A stretch of DNA of 64,000 nucleotides from an uncultured Flavobacteriales bacterium. Lineage in GTDB: Bacteria > Bacteroidota > Bacteroidia > Flavobacteriales > CAJXXR01. The notes below the pieces were generated by a model. The model made no database searches and had not been told where the DNA came from. It saw only the letters and a list, made by a program, of their open reading frames with translations. Each line of letters starts with the position of its first letter. The stretch's first letter is position 1. Positions 14,999 to 30,628 of the stretch are shown here, piece by piece. Made by a program: the position numbers and the translations under genes. The stretch spans positions 44,448 to 108,447 of the forward strand of contig CAJXXR010000002.1 of assembly GCA_913063375.1 (NCBI GenBank), written 5' to 3'.

Positions 14999-15778
14999 AT
15001 GAAAGCATTTTTTGGAGAGCTGATAGGGACATTTATATTGGTATTTATGGGGACAGCTTCTGTAGCGTTGGCTATTAGCGGAGAAGCTTTTTCTGGTTTG
15101 TTTCAAATTGCATGCGTTTGGGGCTTGGCAGTTTTTTTGGGTATTGTAGCTTCTGCAAAATTGTCAGATAGCCACCTAAATCCTGCTGTATCTGTAGCGA
15201 TGTTGATGGCTAAGAATATTTCAAAAAATGCTTTTGGTAAATATATTTCAGGTCAATTGGTGGGCGCCTTGATTGCTGGATTGGGCGTGTACTTTTTCTT
15301 TGGAGATAGTTTGGCTTTGGTTGAATTGAAGAAAGGAATACTTCGTGGAGCGGAAGGTTCTCATTATACTGCGGCAGCTTTTGGAGAGTTTTTTCCAAAT
15401 CCTGGATTTGAAGGGAAGATTGTTGCAGGACATGGAACGGCATTTGCAGCTGAATTTTTGGGTACCTTTTTGCTGGTGCTTGGGATATTTGGGATTGTAG
15501 AAAAGTTCCCTAGCGATAATCTGTTAGCGCCTATGTTTATTGGTTCGTTGGTAACACTGATTATTTGTATCATTGCACCAATAAGTCAAGCAGGATTGAA
15601 TCCAGCGAGAGATTTGATGCCTAGGCTAGTTGCTTATTTCGTGGGCTGGGGAGATGCTGCTTTTCCACCTGCAAAATATATGGCTGTAACGGTATATGTT
15701 ATAGCTCCTATTTTTGGTGGGATGTGTGCATTTTGGTTAAAGACCTTTTTCAGTAAATTGATCTCTGATAGCGAGTAA
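14999..15778 (+). CDS. MIP family channel, aquaglyceroporin (GlpF-like)
   Basis: SHLNPAVS and AGLNPARD motifs; NPARD is typical of glycerol facilitators. Confidence 0.9.
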   Translation: MKAFFGELIGTFILVFMGTASVALAISGEAFSGLFQIACVWGLAVFLGIVASAKLSDSHLNPAVSVAMLMAKNISKNAFGKYISGQLVGALIAGLGVYFFFGDSLALVELKKGILRGAEGSHYTAAAFGEFFPNPGFEGKIVAGHGTAFAAEFLGTFLLVLGIFGIVEKFPSDNLLAPMFIGSLVTLIICIIAPISQAGLNPARDLMPRLVAYFVGWGDAAFPPAKYMAVTVYVIAPIFGGMCAFWLKTFFSKLISDSE

Positions 15779-16471
15779 TTCTCCTACCAGGTCGGGGTTG
15801 GTTTCCAGCGCATTTCCAATTACAACAATATTTGCTCCATTCTCATAGGCTTGTCTTAATTGTTCCGGGGTATTGATTCCGCCACCGATGATTAATGGAA
15901 TGCTAGTATTTTGGTGAACTGCACGAATCATTTCTGGCTTTATAGGTTGAGATGCGCCACTTCCTGCATCCATAAAAATACAGGATAAACCTAGCATTTC
16001 TCCTGCCATTGCTGTAGCTACTGCTATAGCGTTTTTCTCTCTTGGAATTGGCATTGTATTACTCATATAACCAACGGATGAAGTATGTCCATTTTCTATA
16101 AGCATATATCCAGTTGAGATCGTTTTGAGCCCTTTTTCTTTGATAAGTGGTGCAGATAGAACTTGATGACCGATTAATAGTTCAGGGTTTCTGCCCGAGA
16201 TAAGGCTCATGAACAGCATGGCGTCAGCTTGCTTGCTAATTTGTAAAGCGCTTCCAGGGAAGAGTACTACTGGAGTGTTTGTGAGATCTCTTATGAAGGA
16301 TATGGTTTCGTCTAGTTTATCATTCGTATGAATGCTTCCACCGATGAAAATATAATCCGCCTTAGCATTATGAGCGTTTAGGATAGTTCTCCTAAGTTTA
16401 TCGAGATCCGTTTTCCCCGGGTCTATTAAAACGGCAAATTCTTTATTATTTCTGTTAAACGTTATATTCAT
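15737..16471 (-). CDS. Geranylgeranylglyceryl/heptaprenylglyceryl phosphate synthase family protein
   Basis: VLIDPGK, IFIGGS, VVLFPGS, SLISGRNPELLIG, MDAGSGA, IIGGGI. Confidence 0.92.
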   Translation of the reverse strand: MNITFNRNNKEFAVLIDPGKTDLDKLRRTILNAHNAKADYIFIGGSIHTNDKLDETISFIRDLTNTPVVLFPGSALQISKQADAMLFMSLISGRNPELLIGHQVLSAPLIKEKGLKTISTGYMLIENGHTSSVGYMSNTMPIPREKNAIAVATAMAGEMLGLSCIFMDAGSGASQPIKPEMIRAVHQNTSIPLIIGGGINTPEQLRQAYENGANIVVIGNALETNPDLVGELLAIRDQFTEKGL

Positions 16472-18613: not shown

Positions 18614-18649
18614 TAAAAAAAGCCCTTCGAACTTCGAAGGGCTTTTTTT
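18614..18649. terminator. Bidirectional intrinsic terminator
   Basis: aaaaaaagcccttcgaa-c-ttcgaagggctttttt between convergent genes. Confidence 0.9.
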
Positions 18650-19076
18650 AGTTCCATATAGTTAGGCTTGTGCCGTCATAATAACTGGGGTATCTTTTTA
18701 ATCCATAAGGGGCAGGGCCATCCCAGTTTTCGCCAGTACTAAGTAGGAAGATAGATCCGCAGCACTCATCTTTGGCAGTGAATCCTCCTTCATTTTCTAT
18801 CTCAATTTGCTCACATGGGTTGGTGGGGTCGTATGTGCAGGCTCTATCGTATACCATGAATTCATTGGTAGACCTCCTATAGATAATTAATCCATTTACG
18901 CCACCATTGAGCGTCATGCTCCCACCAACAGCTCCCAAAGCATAGTACGATCCAGTGCCTGGATAGATTGTTAAGTTTATAGAGACGTTAGGAAATTTAT
19001 CTGATTCGTCTTTAGAGCAACTACTTATTATTAATATAGTTAGCAGTAGGTTGAGCTTTAAAAGCACTCTTTTCAT
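18648..19076 (-). CDS. Lipoprotein with a Rieske-like fold signature
   Basis: Lipobox ISSC; YDRACTY...ECCGSIF..TG..GPA..L..Y resembles Rieske ferredoxins; start MKRVLL. Confidence 0.65.
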   Translation of the reverse strand: MKRVLLKLNLLLTILIISSCSKDESDKFPNVSINLTIYPGTGSYYALGAVGGSMTLNGGVNGLIIYRRSTNEFMVYDRACTYDPTNPCEQIEIENEGGFTAKDECCGSIFLLSTGENWDGPAPYGLKRYPSYYDGTSLTIWN

Positions 19077-19168
19077 AAGGCTTTGATATTGTGATAGTTT
19101 AACAGTATAAAACACTGGATTATTGCCAAATATATGTAAAAAAAGGTTAAAATTTTGTTAAAAAAGGC

Positions 19169-19199
19169 TTTGCTAGTCGCCTTCCATTGTGTAAATTTA
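19169..19199 (+). promoter_or_regulatory. Candidate promoter for the TBDR operon
   Basis: TTTG (19169), 19-bp spacer, TAAATTTA (19192; one mismatch to TAnnTTTG). Confidence 0.45.
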
Positions 19200-19238: not shown

Positions 19239-22200
19239 ATGTTTAAGAAATTACTCTTGCTGATGGCCTTCATAGGCTTGACTACCAGCATGATGGCGCA
19301 GACTCTTCGGGGGACTGTAACGGATGATTTGGGAGAACCACTTCCATTTGTTAATGTCGTTGTGAAACAGGCTGGGATTACTGTTAGGGGTACTGCTACG
19401 GATTTAGATGGTGAATATATTATTACACCATTGGACGCTAGCACCTATGATGTGGAATTTAGCTATATTGGTTTAGCCACAATTACGATTCAAAAAGTTG
19501 TTATCTCCAATGGAGTAATGACAGAGAAGAATGCAACGATGAGTGAATCGTCAACTACTATGGGGACTATTGTCCTTGTTGATGAAAAACCTTTGATTGA
19601 GAAGGATAACATTGCTGGGTCAACAGTAACTCGAGATGAGTTTGCTGTACTTCCTGTAAGAGACGTGCAAGCAATTGCTGCAAATACTGCAGGGGTCGCT
19701 CAAAAAGGTCCTGGAACTGACTTAAGCGTTCGTGGGGGTAGGTCTTCTCAAACTGTTTACTATGTAGATGGTGTGAAAATGGTTGGTTCTCCGTCGCTGC
19801 CAAATGTTGCTATGGGACAGATTCAGGTAATTACTGGTGGTCTTCCTGCAGAATATGGGGATGCAACTTCAGGTATTATCTCTATTACAACACGTGCTCC
19901 TTCACCAAGACAAGCTGCAAGTTTTGATATTCAGACTTCAGAATTGTTGGATGACTACGGTTATACATTGGGAGAGTTTTTCTATACTGGGCCACTTGCT
20001 TGGAAGAAAACGGAAAAAGATACTACAGTATTGGCTGGATTGGTATTATCTGGTAACTACCGTCATTTGAAAGATGACTCTTATTCAATTAGCTCTTATG
20101 AGTTGAATGGAGATGTACAGGCTGCTATCGATGCAAACCCATTAGTGATGGGTGGAAGTCCTGAATCACCATTTGGAGTTGATGCACTGCATCACGTAAC
20201 CTCTGAGAACGACTTGACAAAGTTGGATTATAGGAAAAATAAAGAAAATGATTTCTTTAACCTACAAACAAAATTAAACATTAAAACTGGGGAAAATTCT
20301 AGTTTGAAAATAGGGGGTACCTTTCAGAATACTTCTGCAGGACAAACTAGCTATGCAAACAGTGTCTTCAATCCTAATCAAAGAGGAGAGAACAAGACTA
20401 ACCGTTATACCATGTATGCTAACTTTGTTCAGTATTTCAAGGATGAAGCTAAAGGAGAAGGTTCGGCATCTGCTATTACAAATGCCAATTATAATATCCG
20501 AGCGGACTATCAAGGGCGTAACTCTACATGGGAAGATTCAAAATTTGGAGAAGACTATGCTAAGTATGGTTATGTTGGTAAGTTCAATCCAGTATTCTCT
20601 GAAGAGGGCGTATCTTTCATTACCAGTCTAGGAGATATCAGAAATGTTACCTTCATGAACAATATTACAGGTGAAGAGGAAACAGTAACTGTTACTGCAT
20701 TCGATCAACCTGCAGTTTGGAGAGATGCTTTTAGTATTGATCACTGGGAGTTTGATGGGGCAGATTTGAATGCTGAGAAAGCAGCTTACACGAATCAATA
20801 TTTTGACTTTGCAGATGACTTAGGTCAACAAGCCTTAGGACAAATTACTGCAGGTGGTGGTATTTTGAATGGTGGTCAACCAACAAATGTTTATGGTCTT
20901 TGGTTACCTCAAGGGTTTAATTATGACTTTAGCCAAAAATTTGATCAAGAGCAGTTCAGACTTTCTGGTTCGGCTTCAGCTATGATCAAGGATCACCAAG
21001 TGAAAATTGGTTTTGAATTTGAACGAAGATCAAGAAGACAATGGTCTGTTACTCCAAGTAGACTTTGGGGTATTGGTCGTCTTTTGGCAAATAGTTATAT
21101 CAATGATGGATCTATCAAGCGTTATGAGTTTAATGGAAATGTAAATGATCAAGGTCGTTTGATCTTGGATGAATTTACAGATCTATCTGGAACCAATGTA
21201 GTTGGTTTTGCTAAGAATGCAAGAGATTTACTAGGTTTAGGTTACGAAGAATACTTGAATGTAGATGGTATGAATCCAGCTGACTTGGATATCAACTTAT
21301 TCTCTGCTGAGGAGTTGTTAGATCAAGACATTGTTGGTGCATACTATGGTTACGATGCGTATGGTAATAAAGTAACAGACAAAGTTACCATGGATGATTT
21401 CTTGAATGATTCATTATTAGATGGTTCATTAAAAAGAGAAGTAGGTGCATTTGAGCCAATTTATATGGCTGGATATATCCAAGATAAATTCTATGTGCGT
21501 GACCTAGTATTTAATGTTGGGGTTCGTGTAGATAGATATGATGCGAATCAGCAAATATTGAACGATGAATATACAATCTATGATGCCTTTACAGCTGGAG
21601 AGATTGCTTCACAAGGTCAATTTAATATACCTTCAAATGTAGGTGATAACTACGTTGTTTATGTTGACAACGCGGAGGATCCAAATAAAATCAACGGATT
21701 TAGAAATGGAAACGTTTGGTATACTGCAGATGGACAAGTTACAAACGATGTGTCTCAAATTTATGGAGACGGTAGAGCTCAACCATATTTGAAACCTGAT
21801 GCAAAAGAAGGGTTGTCTAAAAATAATGGGTTGACAGATGATGCTTTTGGAGATTATGATCCAGAGATTACAATCATGCCTCGTGTATCTTTCAACTTCC
21901 CAATTTCGGATGTTGCCATGTTCTACGCATTCTATGATATTAAAACAATCAGACCAGCAGCCTTTGCAAGTAGATTTGATCCACTTAACTTCTTGGATAT
22001 TGCACTTGGAGAGCAAGGTATTAATGCAACAAATGCAAACTTGAAACCAGAGAAAGTAACTGATTACGAAATGGGATTCAAGCAAGCATTAGGTGAAAAG
22101 GCAACAATTGATATTTCTGCGTTTTATAGAGAGCAAAGAGATATGGTTCAGCAATTGAATGTTAATGATGCATATCCAGCTACTTATTTGACTTTCGGGA

Positions 22201-22937
22201 ATGTTGATTTCGGTACTATAAAGGGAGCGTCTATTGCTTTTGATATGAGAAGAGTTGGAAATATTCGTTTCTCTGCTAACTATACACTTCAGTTTGCTGA
22301 AGGTTCAGGTTCAAGTGCTACATCGGGACTTAGCTTAGCTAACTCTGGTCAGCCAAACTTGAGAACTACACTTCCGTTGAGTTTTGATAGCCGTCACCAA
22401 ATTCAGTCTACTGTTGACTTTAGAATGTTTGAAGGTAAACAATACAATGGACCGGAGAAATTAAGATCTATTCTGGAAAATACATCAGCAGTAGTAACTT
22501 TCTCTGCTCAGTCTGGGAATCCTTATTCTAGAATTTCTGATGCAACTTCAATTACTGAGTCTAGAACTACATTGGCTGGTACTCCAAATGGAGCAAGATT
22601 GCCATGGACTTCTCGTATTGATCTGAAATTACAAAAGAATTTCGATTTGAAATTGGGTAAGAAGGATTCAAACGGTAACAGAAAAGCATATCCTGCAAGT
22701 GTTTACTTACAAGTAAATAACCTTTTGGATACAAGAAATATCAGTAGTGTATACGCATTTACGGGTAATGCAGAAGATGATGGTTACTTAGATTCGGCTG
22801 CTGGTCAGCAAGCTGCTTCAGAACAAGAAAACGAAGAAGCTTATAGATCATTGTACGCATTGAATATCATAAATAACCCTTCGAATTACCTAAGACCAAG
22901 GACAATTCGTTTAGGTTTAACCATGAACTTCCAATAA
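19239..22937 (+). CDS. TonB-dependent receptor with N-terminal carboxypeptidase-regulatory-like domain (non-SusC type)
   Basis: Signal peptide, LRGTVTD..GEPLPFVNV, plug SVRGGRS..YYVDG..IQVITGGLPAEYGD..SGII, NLKPEK, C-terminal PRTIRLGLTMNF. Confidence 0.92.
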   Translation: MFKKLLLLMAFIGLTTSMMAQTLRGTVTDDLGEPLPFVNVVVKQAGITVRGTATDLDGEYIITPLDASTYDVEFSYIGLATITIQKVVISNGVMTEKNATMSESSTTMGTIVLVDEKPLIEKDNIAGSTVTRDEFAVLPVRDVQAIAANTAGVAQKGPGTDLSVRGGRSSQTVYYVDGVKMVGSPSLPNVAMGQIQVITGGLPAEYGDATSGIISITTRAPSPRQAASFDIQTSELLDDYGYTLGEFFYTGPLAWKKTEKDTTVLAGLVLSGNYRHLKDDSYSISSYELNGDVQAAIDANPLVMGGSPESPFGVDALHHVTSENDLTKLDYRKNKENDFFNLQTKLNIKTGENSSLKIGGTFQNTSAGQTSYANSVFNPNQRGENKTNRYTMYANFVQYFKDEAKGEGSASAITNANYNIRADYQGRNSTWEDSKFGEDYAKYGYVGKFNPVFSEEGVSFITSLGDIRNVTFMNNITGEEETVTVTAFDQPAVWRDAFSIDHWEFDGADLNAEKAAYTNQYFDFADDLGQQALGQITAGGGILNGGQPTNVYGLWLPQGFNYDFSQKFDQEQFRLSGSASAMIKDHQVKIGFEFERRSRRQWSVTPSRLWGIGRLLANSYINDGSIKRYEFNGNVNDQGRLILDEFTDLSGTNVVGFAKNARDLLGLGYEEYLNVDGMNPADLDINLFSAEELLDQDIVGAYYGYDAYGNKVTDKVTMDDFLNDSLLDGSLKREVGAFEPIYMAGYIQDKFYVRDLVFNVGVRVDRYDANQQILNDEYTIYDAFTAGEIASQGQFNIPSNVGDNYVVYVDNAEDPNKINGFRNGNVWYTADGQVTNDVSQIYGDGRAQPYLKPDAKEGLSKNNGLTDDAFGDYDPEITIMPRVSFNFPISDVAMFYAFYDIKTIRPAAFASRFDPLNFLDIALGEQGINATNANLKPEKVTDYEMGFKQALGEKATIDISAFYREQRDMVQQLNVNDAYPATYLTFGNVDFGTIKGASIAFDMRRVGNIRFSANYTLQFAEGSGSSATSGLSLANSGQPNLRTTLPLSFDSRHQIQSTVDFRMFEGKQYNGPEKLRSILENTSAVVTFSAQSGNPYSRISDATSITESRTTLAGTPNGARLPWTSRIDLKLQKNFDLKLGKKDSNGNRKAYPASVYLQVNNLLDTRNISSVYAFTGNAEDDGYLDSAAGQQAASEQENEEAYRSLYALNIINNPSNYLRPRTIRLGLTMNFQ

Positions 22938-22955
22938 TCCGAAAATATCTTAAAG

Positions 22956-25900
22956 ATGAAATTGACCTTACAAAATAAAACCCTTGCTCTTTTCATGTCT
23001 TTGGGGCTGTTTCTTGGAAACGCACGAGAGAATGTGGGAGTGATTGTTAAAACTGCAGGTCCGGAGACGGTCCTTGCGAATAACTGTATTCCGGCAAGTT
23101 CGGAAGCGGAATTAAGCGTAAATAATGTCCGTACTATCATGCGTGGTGGTGGTGACTTCTGGTGGAATGGTACAAATGCTAAGTATGAAGTGCCTCAAAA
23201 TAGTGGAAAACATTCACTATTTGCTGGATCACTTTGGATTGGTGGTTTGTCAGATGACAATACCCTAAAGGTTGCAGCTATGACGTACCGTCAAACTGGG
23301 AATGACTTTTGGCCTGGACCACTAGATAGTAGAGAAACGATTACAGATCCTACCACAGGTGATGAGGTTCCAAATGCAAACTATGGTCAAACAGATCAAG
23401 ATGTTTGTGGTGTGTATAATGAACACTGGAAAATTAAATTAAGTGATGTACTTTCTTTCTACCAAAATGAAGTTTTGGAAGGAGATGTAGATCCTGACTA
23501 TACACGTCCATCTATTATCAACAGCTGGCCAGGTAATGGTGTAGATGGTGAGTTGGATGAGATGTTGGCTCCTTTCTATGATTTTGACGGCGATGGGATA
23601 TATGATCCAGAGAATAAGGATTTTCCTGCTTATGATATCTTAGAAAATAGAGATTGTAAAACAGACGATTTATTATATGGTGATGAAACAATCTTCTTCG
23701 TATTCAACGATAGAGGGAATGTTCACTCTGAAACTAATTCATCTGAAACAATCGGTCTTGAAATTAGAGCTCAAGCATTTGGTTTTACTACCAATGATGA
23801 GATCAATGATATGACCTTCTATAACTTTAAAATTATCAACCGTTCTATTGAAACATTGAACCAAACTTATATTGGACACTTTGTTGATTCGGATATCGGA
23901 ACCTATAATGATGATTATGTTGGTTGTGATGTAGGAAGAGGTTTAGGATATTCATACAATGGTGATGAATTTGATGAAGGTGCTCTTGGTTATGGTGTGA
24001 ATCCTCCTGCAATCGGAATGGACTTCTTTAGAGGACCAAAAGCTGATAATGGTGATGGAATTGACAATGACCGTGATGGTTGTATTGACTGTACTTTCGA
24101 TGAAGAAGGGAATCCAATTGCTGATGCAGATTTGCCAGAGTTAATCTCAATGGCAAAATTCGTATACTATAATAATGACAATAACCCTAAAACGGGGAAC
24201 CCTAATGGGGCTCAAGATTACTATAACTACCTAATTGGTAAATGGAGAGATAATACTTCAATGACATGGGGTGGAAATGCAACAGATCCAACTAGTGATC
24301 CTACAGACTGGATGTTTCCTGGTGATACTGATCCTAACCATCCAGGTGAAAACTGGACGGAAGAAAGTGTCAACAATATTCCTGCGGATAGACGTTTCTT
24401 GATCTCAGCTGGACCATTTACATTGGAACCAGGTGCTGTAAACTTGGTAACTACAGGTCTTGTTTGGGCGAAAGCTACAGAAGGTGGTGCTTTTGCATCG
24501 GTTCAAAAGATGCGTGTAGCAGATGATAAGGCACAAGCGCTTTTCAATAACTGTTTTGCAGTATTGAATGGACCTGATGCTCCAGATGTTGCTATTCAGA
24601 AGTATGACAAGGAATTGATCCTGACGATTACTAATTCTCCAAGCTCTAACAACCTCAACGAATCATATGAAGAAGTTGATCCTACTTTAATTAGTACGGA
24701 TGATTTGGAAATTACTGATAATACGTACAAATTTGAAGGGTATCAAATCTTCCAATTGGCAGATGAGACAGTTTCTCCATCAGATTTATATGATTCAGAT
24801 AGAGCTAAGCTATTATTCAACGTGGATGTTGAGAATTATAGATTAGGTTCTGATACATTGCCTAACCTTGAAGATCCGATCGCTACTTTGAAAAATCACG
24901 AGTACGATTTAGATCTTGGAGAGGATGTTCCTACGAATAAAACTATTAATGCTGCCAATAACGGTATCAAGCATTCATTCAGAATTACTGAAGATTTATT
25001 CGCTTTGGGTGATAAGAAATTGGTAAATCATAAGGAATATTACTATATGGCAATTGCGTATGGTTATAATGAATATATGGTTTATAAGAAGGACATTGGA
25101 TTTGATGGAAATACATTAGTTCCTAATATGCTAGGTCAAAAGCTTCCATTTAAAGCTGGACGTAGAAATATTAAAGTTTACAAAGCATTCCCATATAAGA
25201 ATTCTTCTGATTTTGTTGGTGAGTATGGTTCTAGACCTGCTATGACAAGATTGCAAGGTCAAGGAAACTCAGGATTTGAAATTCAAATGTCTGAAGAATC
25301 TTTTGATACTATCGTTAATTCTTTTTGTGAACCTTCTGTAGACTATTTAGAAGATCAGTCACCGGTTAATATTTACGTGGTAAATCCACAAAATGTTTCT
25401 GATGCAGATTTCGTTTTCGAATTTATTCCTAATAGTGAATTTGATACAATCGTTGATAATGAAACAACTTGGAGATTGATAAGAACAATCGGTGATATTA
25501 GCGATACTGTTTATTCTAATGAAGTAGTAAGTATCATTAACGAACAAATCATTCCAGAATGGGGAATAGCTGTTGATGTAAATATCTTCGGGGAACGCCC
25601 ATATAATTCAAAGGAAAGTTCGAATGGATTTATTAGCGCCGAAATTAACTTCGAAGATGAATCAAACGAATGGTTGACATTTGTAGAAGATAGAGATTAC
25701 GAAGACTTTGGTGTATCTGCACAAGATTGGATTTCTGCTGGTCAAACACAAGTTGGTTTAGCAGATATCTCAACTCAACCATCTTGGGATGAGTATGGAG
25801 TACATGATGCTAGAACAATTGGAATTGAAGGATCTCCGGGTGTTCCTGGTATCGATGCTGAATGGCTAGATCCAAATGAGGTATACGAAGGTGTACTAGG

Positions 25901-27035
25901 TGGTACATGGGCTCCTTTTGCTGTATTAAGTGGTAAATCTATTTACCCTAAATATATCGATGATGAGGTAGATACTGCAGGTACAAAGTATGACTTGGTA
26001 AGTGACTTTAGAAATACACCAAGTGTACATATCGTATTTACAGCAGATACTTCTCTTTGGACAAGAGTTCCAGTAATTGAAGCAGATGATTATGACATTG
26101 ATGATAGAAAATTGAAAATGGTTAAAAATAGCCCTTCAAAAGATATCAATGGTAATGAAGAGTCTGGATTCGGTTGGTCTTGGTTCCCTGGATATGCTGT
26201 AAATAAAGATGCTGGTGTTCGTCTAAACATGATGTTTGCGGAGAACTCTACTTTAGTAGATGATAATGGAGATGACATGTTGTGGAATCCTACTTCTAAT
26301 TTGGGAGAATACAATTATACCTTTAACAATGGAGTGATGGTCCCTAGTGGGCAAGTGTTCGGTGGTATGCATTATGTGTATATTATGAATACAGTGTATC
26401 AAGGTAGAAATGAAAGTTTGAATCCTCAATACGACGACCTAACGGAAATTACTGGTGGAACTGGTATTGGAGAGGTTAAGGAAAAGAAAAATGTATTCGC
26501 TCAAACAAACTGGGTAGGTATCCCAATGTTGGCAGAAAATGCTACTTTGTTATCTAATGATGTTAGTATTGATCTTAACGTTGCTCAACCATTGAGAGAA
26601 TGGGGAGCTGGAAACGGTGAATGTGCTGAAAACATTACATACAATGGTTTCCCTAAATATACCTTCAATACGAATAGTATTACTGGAACTGGTATTGTTG
26701 ATAGATATGATACAAATGATCCAATCAACCTAGTAGGAGTTGTTCCTAATCCTTATTATGGATCTTCTTTCTATGAAGATGGGCAGCTTGATCATAGAAT
26801 AAAGGTTACAAATGTACCTCCGCAATCTGTTGTAACAATTTACAATGTTGGTGGTACTTTGATCAGACAACTAAGAAGTCCAGATGTTACTGATGATGTA
26901 ATTTGGGACTTGAAAAACGGTAATGGAATTTCTATTGCTTCTGGTGCTTACATTATACATGTGAAATCTAGAACTGGAGAGAAAACTATTAAGTGGTTTG
27001 GTGCTTTGAGACCTCTTGACCTTGATTCATTTTAA
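22956..27035 (+). CDS. Large secreted protein with a T9SS-type C-terminal domain, function unknown
   Basis: Signal peptide; acidic; DxDxDG loops; C-terminal VVPNPYY..VTIYNVGGTLIR..IWDLKN..IASGAYIIHV. Confidence 0.8.
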   Translation: MKLTLQNKTLALFMSLGLFLGNARENVGVIVKTAGPETVLANNCIPASSEAELSVNNVRTIMRGGGDFWWNGTNAKYEVPQNSGKHSLFAGSLWIGGLSDDNTLKVAAMTYRQTGNDFWPGPLDSRETITDPTTGDEVPNANYGQTDQDVCGVYNEHWKIKLSDVLSFYQNEVLEGDVDPDYTRPSIINSWPGNGVDGELDEMLAPFYDFDGDGIYDPENKDFPAYDILENRDCKTDDLLYGDETIFFVFNDRGNVHSETNSSETIGLEIRAQAFGFTTNDEINDMTFYNFKIINRSIETLNQTYIGHFVDSDIGTYNDDYVGCDVGRGLGYSYNGDEFDEGALGYGVNPPAIGMDFFRGPKADNGDGIDNDRDGCIDCTFDEEGNPIADADLPELISMAKFVYYNNDNNPKTGNPNGAQDYYNYLIGKWRDNTSMTWGGNATDPTSDPTDWMFPGDTDPNHPGENWTEESVNNIPADRRFLISAGPFTLEPGAVNLVTTGLVWAKATEGGAFASVQKMRVADDKAQALFNNCFAVLNGPDAPDVAIQKYDKELILTITNSPSSNNLNESYEEVDPTLISTDDLEITDNTYKFEGYQIFQLADETVSPSDLYDSDRAKLLFNVDVENYRLGSDTLPNLEDPIATLKNHEYDLDLGEDVPTNKTINAANNGIKHSFRITEDLFALGDKKLVNHKEYYYMAIAYGYNEYMVYKKDIGFDGNTLVPNMLGQKLPFKAGRRNIKVYKAFPYKNSSDFVGEYGSRPAMTRLQGQGNSGFEIQMSEESFDTIVNSFCEPSVDYLEDQSPVNIYVVNPQNVSDADFVFEFIPNSEFDTIVDNETTWRLIRTIGDISDTVYSNEVVSIINEQIIPEWGIAVDVNIFGERPYNSKESSNGFISAEINFEDESNEWLTFVEDRDYEDFGVSAQDWISAGQTQVGLADISTQPSWDEYGVHDARTIGIEGSPGVPGIDAEWLDPNEVYEGVLGGTWAPFAVLSGKSIYPKYIDDEVDTAGTKYDLVSDFRNTPSVHIVFTADTSLWTRVPVIEADDYDIDDRKLKMVKNSPSKDINGNEESGFGWSWFPGYAVNKDAGVRLNMMFAENSTLVDDNGDDMLWNPTSNLGEYNYTFNNGVMVPSGQVFGGMHYVYIMNTVYQGRNESLNPQYDDLTEITGGTGIGEVKEKKNVFAQTNWVGIPMLAENATLLSNDVSIDLNVAQPLREWGAGNGECAENITYNGFPKYTFNTNSITGTGIVDRYDTNDPINLVGVVPNPYYGSSFYEDGQLDHRIKVTNVPPQSVVTIYNVGGTLIRQLRSPDVTDDVIWDLKNGNGISIASGAYIIHVKSRTGEKTIKWFGALRPLDLDSF

Positions 27036-27058
27036 TAGACCCATAAAAGAGAAAGATA

Positions 27059-28129
27059 ATGAAGAGAATTTTTTCAAAATATACAGCTAAGATGCTTTTG
27101 GTTGCTGGTTTGGTCTATGCCTCAAATCAGGACGCTATTGCAGGGAACGAAGAACGTTCTGGGCAAGCGGGTGCATCTGAATTATTAATTAACCCATGGG
27201 CTAGAACTTCAGGTTCTGCCGATGCAAATGTTGGTGGGGTTTCCGGATTAGAGGCAACCTTCCTTAACGTTGCGGGTCTTGCTCGTCTAGGTACTGATAT
27301 GGAAATTGGTTTTTCTACCGTTCAGTGGATAGGTGATATTGACATCAATACTGGTGGGTTTGCACGTAGAATAAGTGAAGACGGTGTAATTGCTGCTACT
27401 ATATCTAGCTGGGGCTTTGGTGATATCCTAAGAACTACAGAAGATAATCCTGGTGGTGATTTAGGTACTTTTAGTCCTACTTATTCTATTATCTCACTTT
27501 CTTATGCTAAGAACTTTACACCAACTATTAGTGGTGGGGTTACTATGAGAGTATTGAGTGAGTCTACACCAAATTTGGATGCTTCTGGTATTACTTTAGA
27601 TATCGGTGTTCAGTATGTTTCTGGAGAGAATAACGAACTGAAGTTCGGGATTACTTTGAAGAATATTGGACCTAAATTGGTATTCTCTGGTGATGGTGAT
27701 GATATTCGTTTAACGAATCAAACCGTTCAAGGAGTACCTTTCCAACAGGCATACGAGCATAGAATGGATCCTTTCGAGGTTCCTTCTTTACTAAGTATTG
27801 GTGGGTCATATGACTTTATCTTAGATGAGGATAATGTAGTAACTTCAATGGCTACTTTTACATCGAACTCATTTACAAAGGATAATGTCAACCTAGCTGC
27901 TGAATGGAGTTTCAAATCTAGCCTTATGCTAAGAGCTGGTTACCGTTTAGAAAGTGACATTACTGCAGATTATGATGATGGAAGAACAAATGCATTAACA
28001 GGAATGACTGCTGGGGCATCTTACATCTTCAGTTCTGATTCTGGTAAAGCAATCGCTATCGATTATTCATACCGTGGAGCTGATCCTTTGGCATCAGTTC
28101 ATAATCTAGGTCTGAGGTTAGAACTATAG
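27059..28129 (+). CDS. PorV/PorQ-family outer-membrane beta-barrel
   Basis: Signal peptide, N-terminal GQAGASELLINPWAR, alternating barrel strands, LRAGY, IDYSY, C-terminal HNLGLRLEL. Confidence 0.82.
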   Translation: MKRIFSKYTAKMLLVAGLVYASNQDAIAGNEERSGQAGASELLINPWARTSGSADANVGGVSGLEATFLNVAGLARLGTDMEIGFSTVQWIGDIDINTGGFARRISEDGVIAATISSWGFGDILRTTEDNPGGDLGTFSPTYSIISLSYAKNFTPTISGGVTMRVLSESTPNLDASGITLDIGVQYVSGENNELKFGITLKNIGPKLVFSGDGDDIRLTNQTVQGVPFQQAYEHRMDPFEVPSLLSIGGSYDFILDEDNVVTSMATFTSNSFTKDNVNLAAEWSFKSSLMLRAGYRLESDITADYDDGRTNALTGMTAGASYIFSSDSGKAIAIDYSYRGADPLASVHNLGLRLEL

Positions 28130-28157
28130 AATTCATATACATATTTTGTATATTTGC

Positions 28158-28187
28158 AAAAGAAGATCGTTTACGGTCTTCTTTTTG
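28158..28187 (+). terminator. Intrinsic terminator after the TBDR operon
   Basis: aaaagaagatcg-ttta-cggtcttctttttg. Confidence 0.7.
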
Positions 28188-28270
28188 TTGTTTAATAACT
28201 ATACATTTAGTGAGGATATTACTTGAAAAAGTGAGGATGGAATAATGTATAGCGCATAAAGAGATTGAAT

Positions 28271-29136: not shown

Positions 29137-29687
29137 CCAATTCTATCAGGGTTGTTTTTCATAAAACTAGCCCATGAACCAGAAGAAGAACCCGCCATGT
29201 GCGGGTTTTTTGTTTGTAGGTGATGGCATAGGGCAACGGCTAAACCATCGGTTGCATCAAAATACTTTGGTGCCTCCTTTATGTTTAGTAGTTTTTGTAA
29301 CATATAGCTTACTTGCTCTTTTGAGGCATTCCCACTTCCTGTAACGGCTAATTTCACTTTTTTAGGAGCGTATTCGGTAATTGGGATATTTCTATAAAGG
29401 CCAGCAGCCATTACTACACCTTGAGCCCTACCCAATTTCAGCATGGATTGAACGTTTTTTCCAAAGAAAGGTGCTTCTACAGCAATTTCATCTGGATGAT
29501 ATTGATCGATCAGGCTAAGGGTTTTCTCGAAAATTCTTTTTAATTTTAGGTTATGCCCGTTTAGTTTGTGCAAAAGTAAAACGTCCAATTCTAGTAATTG
29601 AACTTTTTTCCCCTGAATATGGATGATCCCAAATCCCATGACGCTGGTACCTGGATCTACACCTAATATGATTTTGTCTTTTTTCAA
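29133..29687 (-). CDS. ruvC: Holliday junction resolvase RuvC
   Basis: ILGVDPG, IAVEAPF, LGRAQG, GSGNASKEQV, DATDGLAVALCH; TTG start. Confidence 0.96.
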   Translation of the reverse strand: MKKDKIILGVDPGTSVMGFGIIHIQGKKVQLLELDVLLLHKLNGHNLKLKRIFEKTLSLIDQYHPDEIAVEAPFFGKNVQSMLKLGRAQGVVMAAGLYRNIPITEYAPKKVKLAVTGSGNASKEQVSYMLQKLLNIKEAPKYFDATDGLAVALCHHLQTKNPHMAGSSSGSWASFMKNNPDRIG

Positions 29688-30628
29688 TGGTAAAGAATAT
29701 CTACAAATATCTAAAAATATATGAAGATTTTGGTTCTAAGAGCCTAGATCTATTAAGATATATTTTTAGTTTTTTAGCACTTACCTTTGTAATCATTGAA
29801 TTGAAGCAAGCAATAGGTTTAGGTCATATTGAGACTTTAAAGACTCAACTAACCGTCCATTTTGAATTGGTTTGGCTATTTGGGACGTTTGTTTTCGCTT
29901 TTATTCACCATTGGTCTGATGCCAAGGTCTGGCAGTCAATAATTGCAACGAAAAGAAAATTCCCTTTACTCCTTGCCCTAAGAATGAATTGGACGAGTCT
30001 AGCGTATTCTTTTTATAGTCCTAATAGGCTTCTAGATATTCCTTCGAAGGTTCTACTGTTGGAGGATATGGATCGTGCTTTTAAATGGTACGCAGCTGGA
30101 TTATATAATGTTTTAAAGCCATCTGCTACTTTTTATATTGGATTGGCTGCACTAAGTTTATTGCTTGGTTATTGGTGGTTAACTCTTGGACTTGTAATTG
30201 TTGGGCCGTTCGTGTTACTTTGGATTAAAGATAAACTTGAAAAAAGTGAATTTCTGAGGGATAGAATTTCATTGGAAGAAAGAGTAGGAGATTCTTTATT
30301 TCTGGAACTTTTGGGATTGAATTTAATACGAATAGTTAGTTTGGCTTTACAGCATGCTGGAATTTTATTTCTGCTAGGTTTTCAATTTCCAGTAGAAAGC
30401 TTGTTAATGTATCTGCTAATCATACATACAGTGGTTACTTTTTTACCCCAGGTCGCTGGAACTGAAATTTTCGTCAGGAGTTATCTTTGTTTTTATTTTT
30501 TAGAGTTGGATTCTGGCCATGAGTTGGTGCTGGCAAGTTCTGTGTTAGTATTGTGGACTATGAATATTATGCTGCCTGCCGTTATTGGTTTATTTGTTCA
30601 GAAAAAAGCGGGATTAAAAAAAGACTAA
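29687..30628 (+). CDS. Multi-pass membrane protein, lysylphosphatidylglycerol-synthase-TM/flippase-like
   Basis: Several hydrophobic segments, GTEIFVRS, LWTMNIMLPAVIG; directly upstream of a GT2 gene; start uncertain. Confidence 0.55.
   Translation: MVKNIYKYLKIYEDFGSKSLDLLRYIFSFLALTFVIIELKQAIGLGHIETLKTQLTVHFELVWLFGTFVFAFIHHWSDAKVWQSIIATKRKFPLLLALRMNWTSLAYSFYSPNRLLDIPSKVLLLEDMDRAFKWYAAGLYNVLKPSATFYIGLAALSLLLGYWWLTLGLVIVGPFVLLWIKDKLEKSEFLRDRISLEERVGDSLFLELLGLNLIRIVSLALQHAGILFLLGFQFPVESLLMYLLIIHTVVTFLPQVAGTEIFVRSYLCFYFLELDSGHELVLASSVLVLWTMNIMLPAVIGLFVQKKAGLKKD

Follow-up and report, generated by a model that had tools for sequence, protein, structure and literature searches.

Architecture of the locus

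The window analysed here is a 64,000-nucleotide stretch of contig CAJXXR010000002.1 (assembly GCA_913063375.1) from an uncultured Flavobacteriales bacterium. Our subject within it is a compact triad of genes encoding a TonB-dependent-receptor-like outer-membrane protein of 1232 amino acids (gene 1, P0001; 19239-22937, + strand), a secreted cargo protein of 1359 amino acids from a large family that has no Pfam model (gene 2, P0002; 22956-27035, +) and an outer-membrane barrel of 356 amino acids from the PorV/PorQ family (gene 3, P0003; 27059-28129, +). Taken as a unit, the triad looks like an undescribed alternative to the SusC/SusD nutrient-uptake pair, built with a type IX secretion system (T9SS) partner.

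The first-pass annotation of this DNA had described three co-oriented exported proteins separated by 18 and 23 bp, and the open reading frames (ORFs) lie exactly so. Judged by eye from the translations, all three products begin with a Sec-type signal peptide, and the same inspection found no lipobox cysteine close to the signal-peptide end in any of them. The three-gene unit is closed by a strong intrinsic-terminator-like hairpin of 12 pairs (28158-28185) with a T-run (28158-28195 in all, +), as had been anticipated. The single promoter proposed earlier fared less evenly. A pattern look-up in the 123-bp upstream spacer retrieved a near-consensus, Bacteroidota-type -7 element (TAAATTTA, 19192-19199, +) 40 bp ahead of the gene 1 ATG, which is a candidate only and is labelled by reference to TAnnTTTG, which we take to be the Bacteroidota -7 consensus; a sigma-70 promoter scan showed no enrichment (35 sites vs 37.0 expected).

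Upstream, the triad is flanked by ahcY and an unnamed 155-aa ORF, and downstream by greA, a HIT protein, ruvC, a GT2 glycosyltransferase and an ABC permease; no SusD lipoprotein, carbohydrate-active enzyme (CAZyme) or regulator stands beside it at the locus, in agreement with the initial description. The codon choice, which had been taken as a hint of high expression, did not prove distinctive: on an index of C-ending codons, built on six two-fold amino acids and unvalidated as an expression measure, the triad genes rank at the 63rd-71st percentile and ahcY at the 59th in a set of 1787 long ORFs.

The receptor-like protein

The N-terminus of P0001 carries a CarboxypepD_reg-like domain (aa 22-112; 19302-19574, +; PF13620 at 53.6 bits and PF13715 at 53.2 bits), followed by a Plug domain (aa 128-212; 19620-19874, +; PF07715 at 32.8 bits over a cut-off of 23.9) that was also retrieved by a genome-wide Plug scan. 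A stretch between these two domains was picked out by eye as a candidate TonB box. Matches to the TonB-dependent-receptor barrel were weak and confined to aa 880-1067, and the orthologues of P0001, which measure 1207-1280 aa, include many with a PF00593 match. The SusC/RagA model TIGR04056 gave no match to P0001 at E<=0.01. These domain assignments indicate that the gene 1 product is TonB-dependent-receptor-like, with CarboxypepD_reg and Plug domains, and is not of the SusC/RagA type. The very long insertions ascribed to the receptor in the first pass were recovered as approximately 229 aa, chiefly aa 464-545 and 613-699, that are missing in at least seven of nine shorter homologues (916-1095 aa).

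The cargo protein and its sorting domain

A Pfam scan of P0002 returned no family at its cut-off, and neither Pfam nor NCBIfam scans found a peptidase or propeller family in it. The protein nevertheless belongs to a very populous family. Clustered at 90% identity, at least 6215 clusters matched at E<=1e-3 among the 8000 candidates scored; in the 120 that were listed, identity ranged from 39 to 100% over near full length, and the few with names were hypothetical or T9SS-domain proteins. At 50% identity, 7152 clusters matched at E<=1e-3, 1977 of them at E<=1e-30.

The structure was modelled with AlphaFold2 in two overlapping parts, both from 55-row alignments: aa 24-1223 (mean predicted local distance difference test [pLDDT] score 82.5, predicted template-modelling [pTM] score 0.71) and aa 536-1359 (pLDDT 80.4, pTM 0.80). 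Foldseek searches gave weak matches for both models, with template-modelling scores of at most 0.23 against the PDB for the 1200-aa model, and the N-terminal fold became visible with VIA-align, run against 48,161 PDB representatives. In the resulting comparison, aa ~43-536 (23082-24563, +) were modelled as a galactose-mutarotase-like beta-supersandwich with acidic insertions. Its best match was the N-terminal domain of dextran dextrinase (9ju0; Z 18.7, root-mean-square deviation [rmsd] 3.3, 255 aa aligned), followed by the N-terminal domain of glucodextranase (1ulv; Z 18.6), the N-domains of glycoside hydrolase (GH) families GH94 and GH65, and GH116; aldose epimerases scored lower (Z ~12.7). 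Sequence identity to these folds is just 7-12%, and no catalytic (alpha/alpha)6 domain follows the supersandwich. As a separate observation, a short paralogue of the cargo on contig C7 (19861-21468, - strand; 536-aa frame, 199 bits) consists of the N-terminal supersandwich only and is devoid of a C-terminal domain (CTD).

The supersandwich is followed by an Fn3-like domain with an insertion (aa ~538-752; 24567-25211, +), assigned in the second model from weak matches to Fn3 and phage tail-tip proteins (Z 7-9), and then by a beta-rich middle region with a conserved WFPGYA motif (aa ~753-1251; 25212-26708, +), delineated from the AlphaFold2 models and alignments. The middle region gave no fold match and no usable Atlas match, and since it is barely covered by the VIA-align rows we make no fold claim for it.

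The cargo ends in a predicted T9SS C-terminal sorting domain (aa ~1252-1359; 26709-27032, +), placed by hidden Markov models (HMMs), fold matches and a CTD alignment. The first-pass annotation had called this CTD atypical, and the comparisons bear this out: the domain fails the cut-off of the type A HMM, PF18962 was unreported at E<=0.01, and the PorZ tail model scored 23.7 bits on the last ~100 residues, which is sub-threshold. At the level of the predicted fold, the domain (aa ~1252-1351) is nearest to PorZ (5m11_A; Z 12.7, rmsd 2.0, 91 aa, 24% identity) and then to PorU (6za2_B; Z 9.9), both of which are retained CTDs, while the CTDs of cleaved cargo are further off (Z 8.6 for mirolase, 8.2 for NucA [8glk_D] and 7.9 for RgpB). 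The modelled domain is a seven-strand Ig-like beta-sandwich at the extreme C-terminus that superposes on solved CTDs, as expected of a T9SS CTD at the fold level. In keeping with this, PorZ was the sole match when the cargo family profile was searched against PDB sequences (E 0.029). An alignment of 35 CTDs further revealed a conserved extension past the last canonical strand, ending in an aromatic residue.

A dedicated fourth barrel of the PorV family

P0003 passes the PorV/PorQ family model NF033709 with 142 bits (cut-off 90) over model positions 3-325 of 326, and the Pfam PorV model PF19572 with 34.5 bits (cut-off 27). It was rejected as a canonical PorV (NF033710, 70.7 bits vs 250 required), as PorQ (NF033711, 67.7 bits vs a cut-off of 220) and as PorV2 (NF052325, 27.3 bits vs a cut-off of 325). 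The genome (2.46 Mb assembled, 83% complete) encodes four PorV-family genes, namely PorV, PorQ, PorV2 and the barrel of the window. The canonical PorV (478.7 bits) is located on another contig, where it adjoins PorU (1300 bits) and has a PorP/SprF gene upstream, and PorQ (322.6 bits) and PorV2 (438.4 bits) both lie away from the triad. PorZ (600 bits) and SprA (2351 bits) were also found. Since PorU, PorV, PorQ, PorZ, PorV2, SprA and PorP/SprF are all present, the T9SS of this organism is complete and the barrel of the window is an extra one. The PorU2 model, scanned across the genome, matched the ordinary PorU alone and under its cut-off. The PorV2 paralogue (NF052325) lies on contig C17 (L088, 9112-10176, -) beside lnt (apolipoprotein N-acyltransferase) and a MATE pump.

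A maximum-likelihood tree of 50 PorV-family proteins, comprising the four of this genome, the paralogues of five related genomes and every second triad barrel (30 of 59), resolved PorV2, PorQ, PorV and the triad barrels into four clades, with supports of 100%, 99%, 98% and 100%, respectively, in the Shimodaira-Hasegawa-like approximate likelihood-ratio test. The true PorV sequences thus stand apart from the triad barrels, whose clade sits on a long stem (1.67) and is weakly sister to PorV (75%). Together with the family scores, this placement indicates that gene 3 encodes a dedicated PorV-family paralogue, as the first pass had supposed, which is the fourth in this genome and not the canonical PorV.

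Profile scans over all six-frame ORFs of the genome found one cargo-type CTD (153.9 bits; runner-up the PorU CTD at 18.3), one barrel of the triad clade (443 bits; runner-up PorV at 75) and exactly one receptor of the P0001 type. No match to SusD_RagB (PF07980) was detected anywhere in the 83%-complete assembly. The same genome contains 12 Plug-domain receptors, and this Flavobacteriales-like organism seems to manage without SusC/D pairs.

Predicted contact between the sorting domain and the barrel

The CTD (aa 1249-1359) and the mature barrel (aa 29-356) were co-folded with 35-row alignments drawn from the same loci. The interface score (interaction prediction score from aligned errors, ipSAE) was 0.89 in three of three runs, compared with 0.02 for the best of three controls; the runs shared at least 96% of their contacts, and the pLDDT of the partner was at least 86. 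Among solved complexes, 116 of 157 reach the pass mark applied here, as do 2 of 215 mismatched pairs; these counts serve only as a rough guide for custom alignments such as ours. The predicted interface engages several barrel loops and the C-terminal extension of the CTD. These predictions support both the CTD fold and the CTD-barrel contact, and are consistent with the earlier proposal that the paralogous barrel holds the cargo by its CTD.

Conservation of the triad

A pattern scan over one genome per GTDB species revealed at least 754 stretches encoding a relative of the cargo, the best 80 of which were analysed as loci. Receptor, cargo and barrel follow one another in the same order and on the same strand in 60 of the 80. 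Twelve more are compatible with this arrangement and are interrupted by a contig end, 11 of them carrying receptor and cargo without the downstream side and one carrying cargo and barrel without the upstream side; one locus is a bare cargo fragment and is uninformative. The remaining seven hold cargo homologues that lack a receptor, and at least four of these have room on both sides; two of the four (L019 and L060) come from assemblies that also carry a full triad (L021 and L038). Downstream of the triad, greA was found in 55 and the HIT gene in 51 of the 80 loci, and this synteny places the module in a conserved core-genome neighbourhood in this lineage. The neighbourhood survey extends the presence of the triad in other genomes, which the first-pass annotation had mentioned, far beyond this one. 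In one related metagenome-assembled genome, all three triad genes are split into several frames on a long contig (L007), each recovered as 2-4 tblastn pieces, and assembly indels seem more likely there than real pseudogenes. Tandem duplicates of the cargo were also seen beside or after the triad (L012, L058, L072, L135, L128 and L156).

Across an even sample of the phylum (401 genomes, cargo match threshold E<=1e-20), a relative of the cargo was found in 137 genomes; many of the weaker matches extend over only a section of the protein or over just the CTD. Some families of the same class have full-length orthologues (e.g. f8, in eight of eight genomes), while the sampled genomes of f2, a family of the same order, and of f25 gave none (0/28 and 0/87, respectively). 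SprA is present in all 137 cargo-positive genomes, and the cargo was found in none of the 89 SprA-less genomes. In regions taken from other families and classes, 20 of 20 have a receptor (~940-1270 aa), a cargo (~1000-1540 aa) and a barrel (~340-380 aa) in the same order. A whole-cargo Atlas search returned unnamed clusters only, together with a Fidelibacterota cluster with a Por_Secre_tail at 0.91, and one receptor orthologue (P0301) is labelled Candidatus Delongbacteria; these hint at a module that reaches beyond Bacteroidota and are treated as leads only.

The receptor-like protein might be an exporter that lets out or displays the cargo or its product, in the manner of Myxococcus Oar, which resembles TonB-dependent transporters, has a CarboxypepD_reg domain and is reportedly necessary for protease secretion. 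The succession of CarboxypepD_reg, Plug and a large barrel is common to that class. However, the cargo bears a T9SS CTD and every cargo-positive genome sampled has SprA, no Oar-specific model appears among the Pfam matches of the receptor, and a dedicated PorV-like barrel would be left without a role. We regard export through gene 1 as very unlikely.

The conservation of gene order, the existence of a canonical PorV besides the triad barrel, and the predicted CTD-barrel interface bear on those of the refuting outcomes named in the first-pass annotation that could be examined here (an unconserved triad, a barrel that is the sole canonical PorV, and the lack of an interface, here between CTD and barrel), and none of these outcomes was observed.

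Multi-copy cassettes in other classes

Profile scans of five genomes from other classes gave 8-18 barrel matches and 6-17 CTD matches each; PorV, PorQ and PorV2 of the respective genomes are probably among the weaker barrel matches. For 37 of the 53 CTDs in these genomes a barrel lies within 600 bp downstream on the same strand, and for 9 more it lies further downstream within 12 kb, in some cases behind tandem cargo copies. Among 20 further paralogous cassettes, 19 have a receptor-like gene upstream of the CTD protein(s) and barrel. The exception (L156) encodes three tandem CTD proteins of ~990-1000 aa before one barrel, with no receptor upstream within the stretch examined. The CTD proteins of the cassettes measure 643-1319 aa, the shorter ones having just the CTD in common with P0002, and none of the 20 gave a Pfam match at E<=1e-3 save one with a weak FlgD_ig match.

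Beside these cassettes lie genes for GH16, for GH28 together with a Pel9A-like lyase, for GHL10, for a glucoamylase-like protein (PF10091) and for the carbohydrate-binding module CBM9, and a GH18 gene sits between receptor and cargo. A PfkB kinase and regulators of the LacI and RpiR families are also encoded nearby, and many of the neighbouring enzymes carry Por_Secre_tail domains. Apart from the missing SusD, this composition is that of a polysaccharide utilisation locus (PUL). Orthologues in other classes of the triad seen in the window have GWxTD-domain or TPR/multihaem-like proteins after the barrel, not CAZymes. In detail, a GWxTD-domain protein was observed in three loci (L116, L128 and L131); in four others (L119, L120, L123 and L126) the protein measures 720-745 aa and shows TPR repeats along with motifs like those of multihaem cytochromes.

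The cargo-barrel pair could be an autonomous surface device, serving for instance as adhesin, surface-layer component or extracellular enzyme and anchored by its own PorV-like barrel, with a receptor that merely shares the operon and imports an unrelated or distantly made product. The tightest link in the cassettes is indeed that between CTD and barrel (37/53 directly adjacent), L156 and the seven receptor-less loci among the 80 would suit such a device, and the size of the cargo, its richness in beta structure and its Fn3-like domain are also traits of adhesins. Yet the receptor stands directly upstream in 60/80, 20/20 and 19/20 loci across classes, a strictness of order over such evolutionary distances that genes of unrelated function seldom show, and the 18-23 bp spacers point to co-translation of a stoichiometric set. 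An autonomous pair is, in our judgement, unlikely. The retention of order and strand in the same three sets, which include independently diversified paralogous cassettes, weighs even more heavily against an arrangement inherited by chance with no joint function at all, to which we give hardly any credence.

A further possibility is that the triad constitutes an accessory T9SS or envelope-biogenesis complex akin to PorU-PorV and PorZ-PorQ, in which the cargo, as an enzyme or carrier, acts on other secreted proteins or a surface glycolipid and the receptor-like barrel is a conduit or platform. The CTD is nearest to those of PorZ and PorU, which are components of the machine rather than its cargo; the triad barrels are weakly sister to PorV (75%); the module is single-copy in this lineage, among housekeeping genes with greA/HIT synteny in 55 and 51 of 80 loci; and another putative sorting pair besides the first, PorU2/PorV2, is already represented in NCBIfam. 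Against this, sampled f2 genomes, which represent the best-studied T9SS lineages, have SprA in 28 of 28 cases and the cargo in none, and the cargo shows neither the peptidase nor the propeller family of its supposed counterparts in the Pfam and NCBIfam scans. The multi-copy, variable cargo and the CAZyme and regulator neighbours elsewhere fit substrate-specific uptake better than core machinery. Such a complex appears to us rather improbable, somewhat more so than the autonomous pair. In any case, the module extends beyond what the first-pass annotation described, being phylum-wide, multi-copy in other classes and centred on a cargo family that is very large and unannotated.

A proposed SusD-independent uptake module

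Returning to nutrient uptake, we propose that the three genes form one T9SS-built, SusD-independent outer-membrane uptake module, a scheme that, taken whole, we favour with modest confidence. In this scheme, the cargo would be exported via Sec and then carried across the outer membrane by the T9SS through its CTD. The CTD would remain uncleaved on the extracellular face of the dedicated PorV-family barrel, which would thereby tether the ~150-kDa beta-rich cargo to the cell surface, as PorQ holds PorZ and PorV holds PorU. Once tethered, the cargo would probably bind a glycan through its galactose-mutarotase-like domain; it may capture, and perhaps process, the substrate and hand it over to the TonB-energised transporter encoded by gene 1, thus filling the role that SusD or other surface lipoproteins have in SusC/D systems.

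The anchoring of the cargo on the barrel is the best-supported of these steps, with a contact that is predicted by co-folding. The pairing is further supported by the dedicated clade, the one-to-one occurrence of cargo and barrel, their adjacency in diversified cassettes and the PorZ/PorU-like fold of the CTD. We infer that the cargo serves the transporter because the receptor's position is near-invariant, the spacers are tight, the surroundings of the paralogues are PUL-like, the fold of the N-terminal domain is carbohydrate-associated and no SusD was detected in the 83%-complete genome. The first-pass suggestion that the cargo acts on the receptor's behalf as lid, adhesin or enzyme would likewise draw on the conserved order and on the CAZyme-rich environment of paralogous cassettes in other classes. 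What the analysis shows directly is the family membership of the parts, the preservation of their order and the separateness of the barrel clade; that the CTD is kept, that the receptor is coupled to its partners physically and in function, that uptake takes place and what the substrate is are inferences. More tentatively, and as something we would not yet call probable, the module may represent a phylum-wide class of undescribed TonB-dependent uptake machines with a T9SS-delivered partner docked by an uncleaved PorZ/PorU-like CTD on its own PorV-family barrel. Outside Bacteroidia, the 6-18 cassettes per genome, whose partners are variable and unannotated and which lie by secreted CAZymes, would be the equivalents of PULs, and the copy in the window would be the conserved single-copy member of streamlined SusD-less lineages.

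Several observations weigh against this proposal. Coupling of the receptor to uptake is proposed from gene order, and PF00593 was undetected in P0001 at E<=0.01. The triad of the window is surrounded by housekeeping genes (ahcY, greA, HIT and ruvC) and not by CAZymes; surroundings that resemble a PUL are those of paralogues from other classes, and in these the N-terminal parts of the cargo differ. A galactose-mutarotase-like fold, itself modelled, is no proof of sugar binding, and ~500 aa of the cargo carry no fold assignment. The CTD scores 20.5 bits against the type A HMM TIGR04183, under the cut-off of 23. Solved PorV-CTD complexes exist, and the co-fold pass may mirror likeness to them; nor does the predicted complex establish a preference for the triad barrel over the canonical PorV. 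Finally, the genomes compared are kin and not independent, so the co-occurrence counts overstate their support.

In genome annotation, as in the metaproteomics of marine and gut samples, SusC/D pairs are the marker for Bacteroidota glycan uptake; a parallel uptake system, if the triad is one, goes unseen by PUL prediction based on SusD. The present genome shows the module and no detectable SusD. If the proposal is true, the reach of the T9SS would extend from secretion, attachment and gliding to the building of nutrient-import machines, a fourth functional clade would be added to the PorV family, and a Pfam-less protein family of thousands of clusters would gain its first functional handle. 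Any cultivable member of the phylum with these three genes would allow a direct test of the module.

Other features of the window

Two ORFs near the triad, namely the upstream 155-aa frame (18648-19115, -) and a 313-aa frame (29687-30628, +), belong to no Pfam or NCBIfam family; the former also adjoins the triad in 17 of the 80 related loci. Further upstream, 15737-16471 (-) encodes a PcrB-family geranylgeranylglyceryl/heptaprenylglyceryl phosphate synthase (276 bits), adjoining a 4'-phosphopantetheinyl transferase. An Rfam scan of the window at gathering thresholds retrieved no RNA family.

Comparison with known systems

All parts of the module come from known superfamilies, namely the TonB-dependent transporters, the PorV/PorQ family and T9SS CTDs. 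A search of open-access papers and preprints found no description of a module of receptor, CTD protein and PorV-like barrel, with supplements, which may list orthologues, lying outside the search. A 2026 review on glycoside transporters makes zero mention of T9SS, type IX, PorV or words beginning with Ignavibacteri or Rhodotherm. The closest published layout is the xylan locus of Rhodothermus marinus, where Rmar_1070-1072 encode, in turn, a TonB-dependent receptor, a hypothetical protein that bears a Por-secretion C-terminal domain and a further hypothetical protein, with T9SS-tailed xylanases around them; the authors treat Rmar_1071 and Rmar_1072 as hypothetical (PMC6987092). Going by this description rather than by sequence comparison, Rmar_1070-1072 looks like the same three-gene layout.

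The anchoring part of the module is most similar to the PorZ-PorQ and PorU-PorV pairs of the Porphyromonas gingivalis attachment complex, where a CTD-bearing T9SS protein sits on a 14-strand barrel of the PorV family, the CTD of PorU staying on PorV and that of PorZ on PorQ (PMC10202324). The same review proposes that cognate PorV-like barrels may shield CTDs from cleavage (PMC10202324). The triad barrel, the CTD fold and the co-fold all align with these pairs. Unlike them, the triad barrel forms a separate fourth clade, the cargo has neither the propellers of PorZ nor the peptidase domain of PorU, and the pair is encoded beside a TonB-dependent receptor and is multi-copy in other classes. A T9SS substrate beside its own anchoring barrel is also known from type B CTD cargo and PorP/SprF (e.g. 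SprB-SprF) (PMC10202324; PMC9143113). In contrast to that system, the triad barrel is of the PorV/PorQ family, the genome's PorP/SprF gene lies elsewhere and the CTD resembles type A and PorZ.

With SusC/SusD (RagA/RagB), the triad shares a transporter with a CarboxypepD_reg-type N-terminal domain beside a large and putatively surface-exposed partner, and its paralogous cassettes, like SusC/SusD PULs, accompany glycoside hydrolases and sugar regulators. It differs in that its receptor gives no SusC/RagA match, no SusD was found in the 83%-complete genome, and its partner is not a lipoprotein and would instead be a T9SS substrate anchored by the barrel of the third gene. By analogy, the module would act like a SusC/D pair equipped with PorZ-PorQ-type anchoring, while belonging to neither system.

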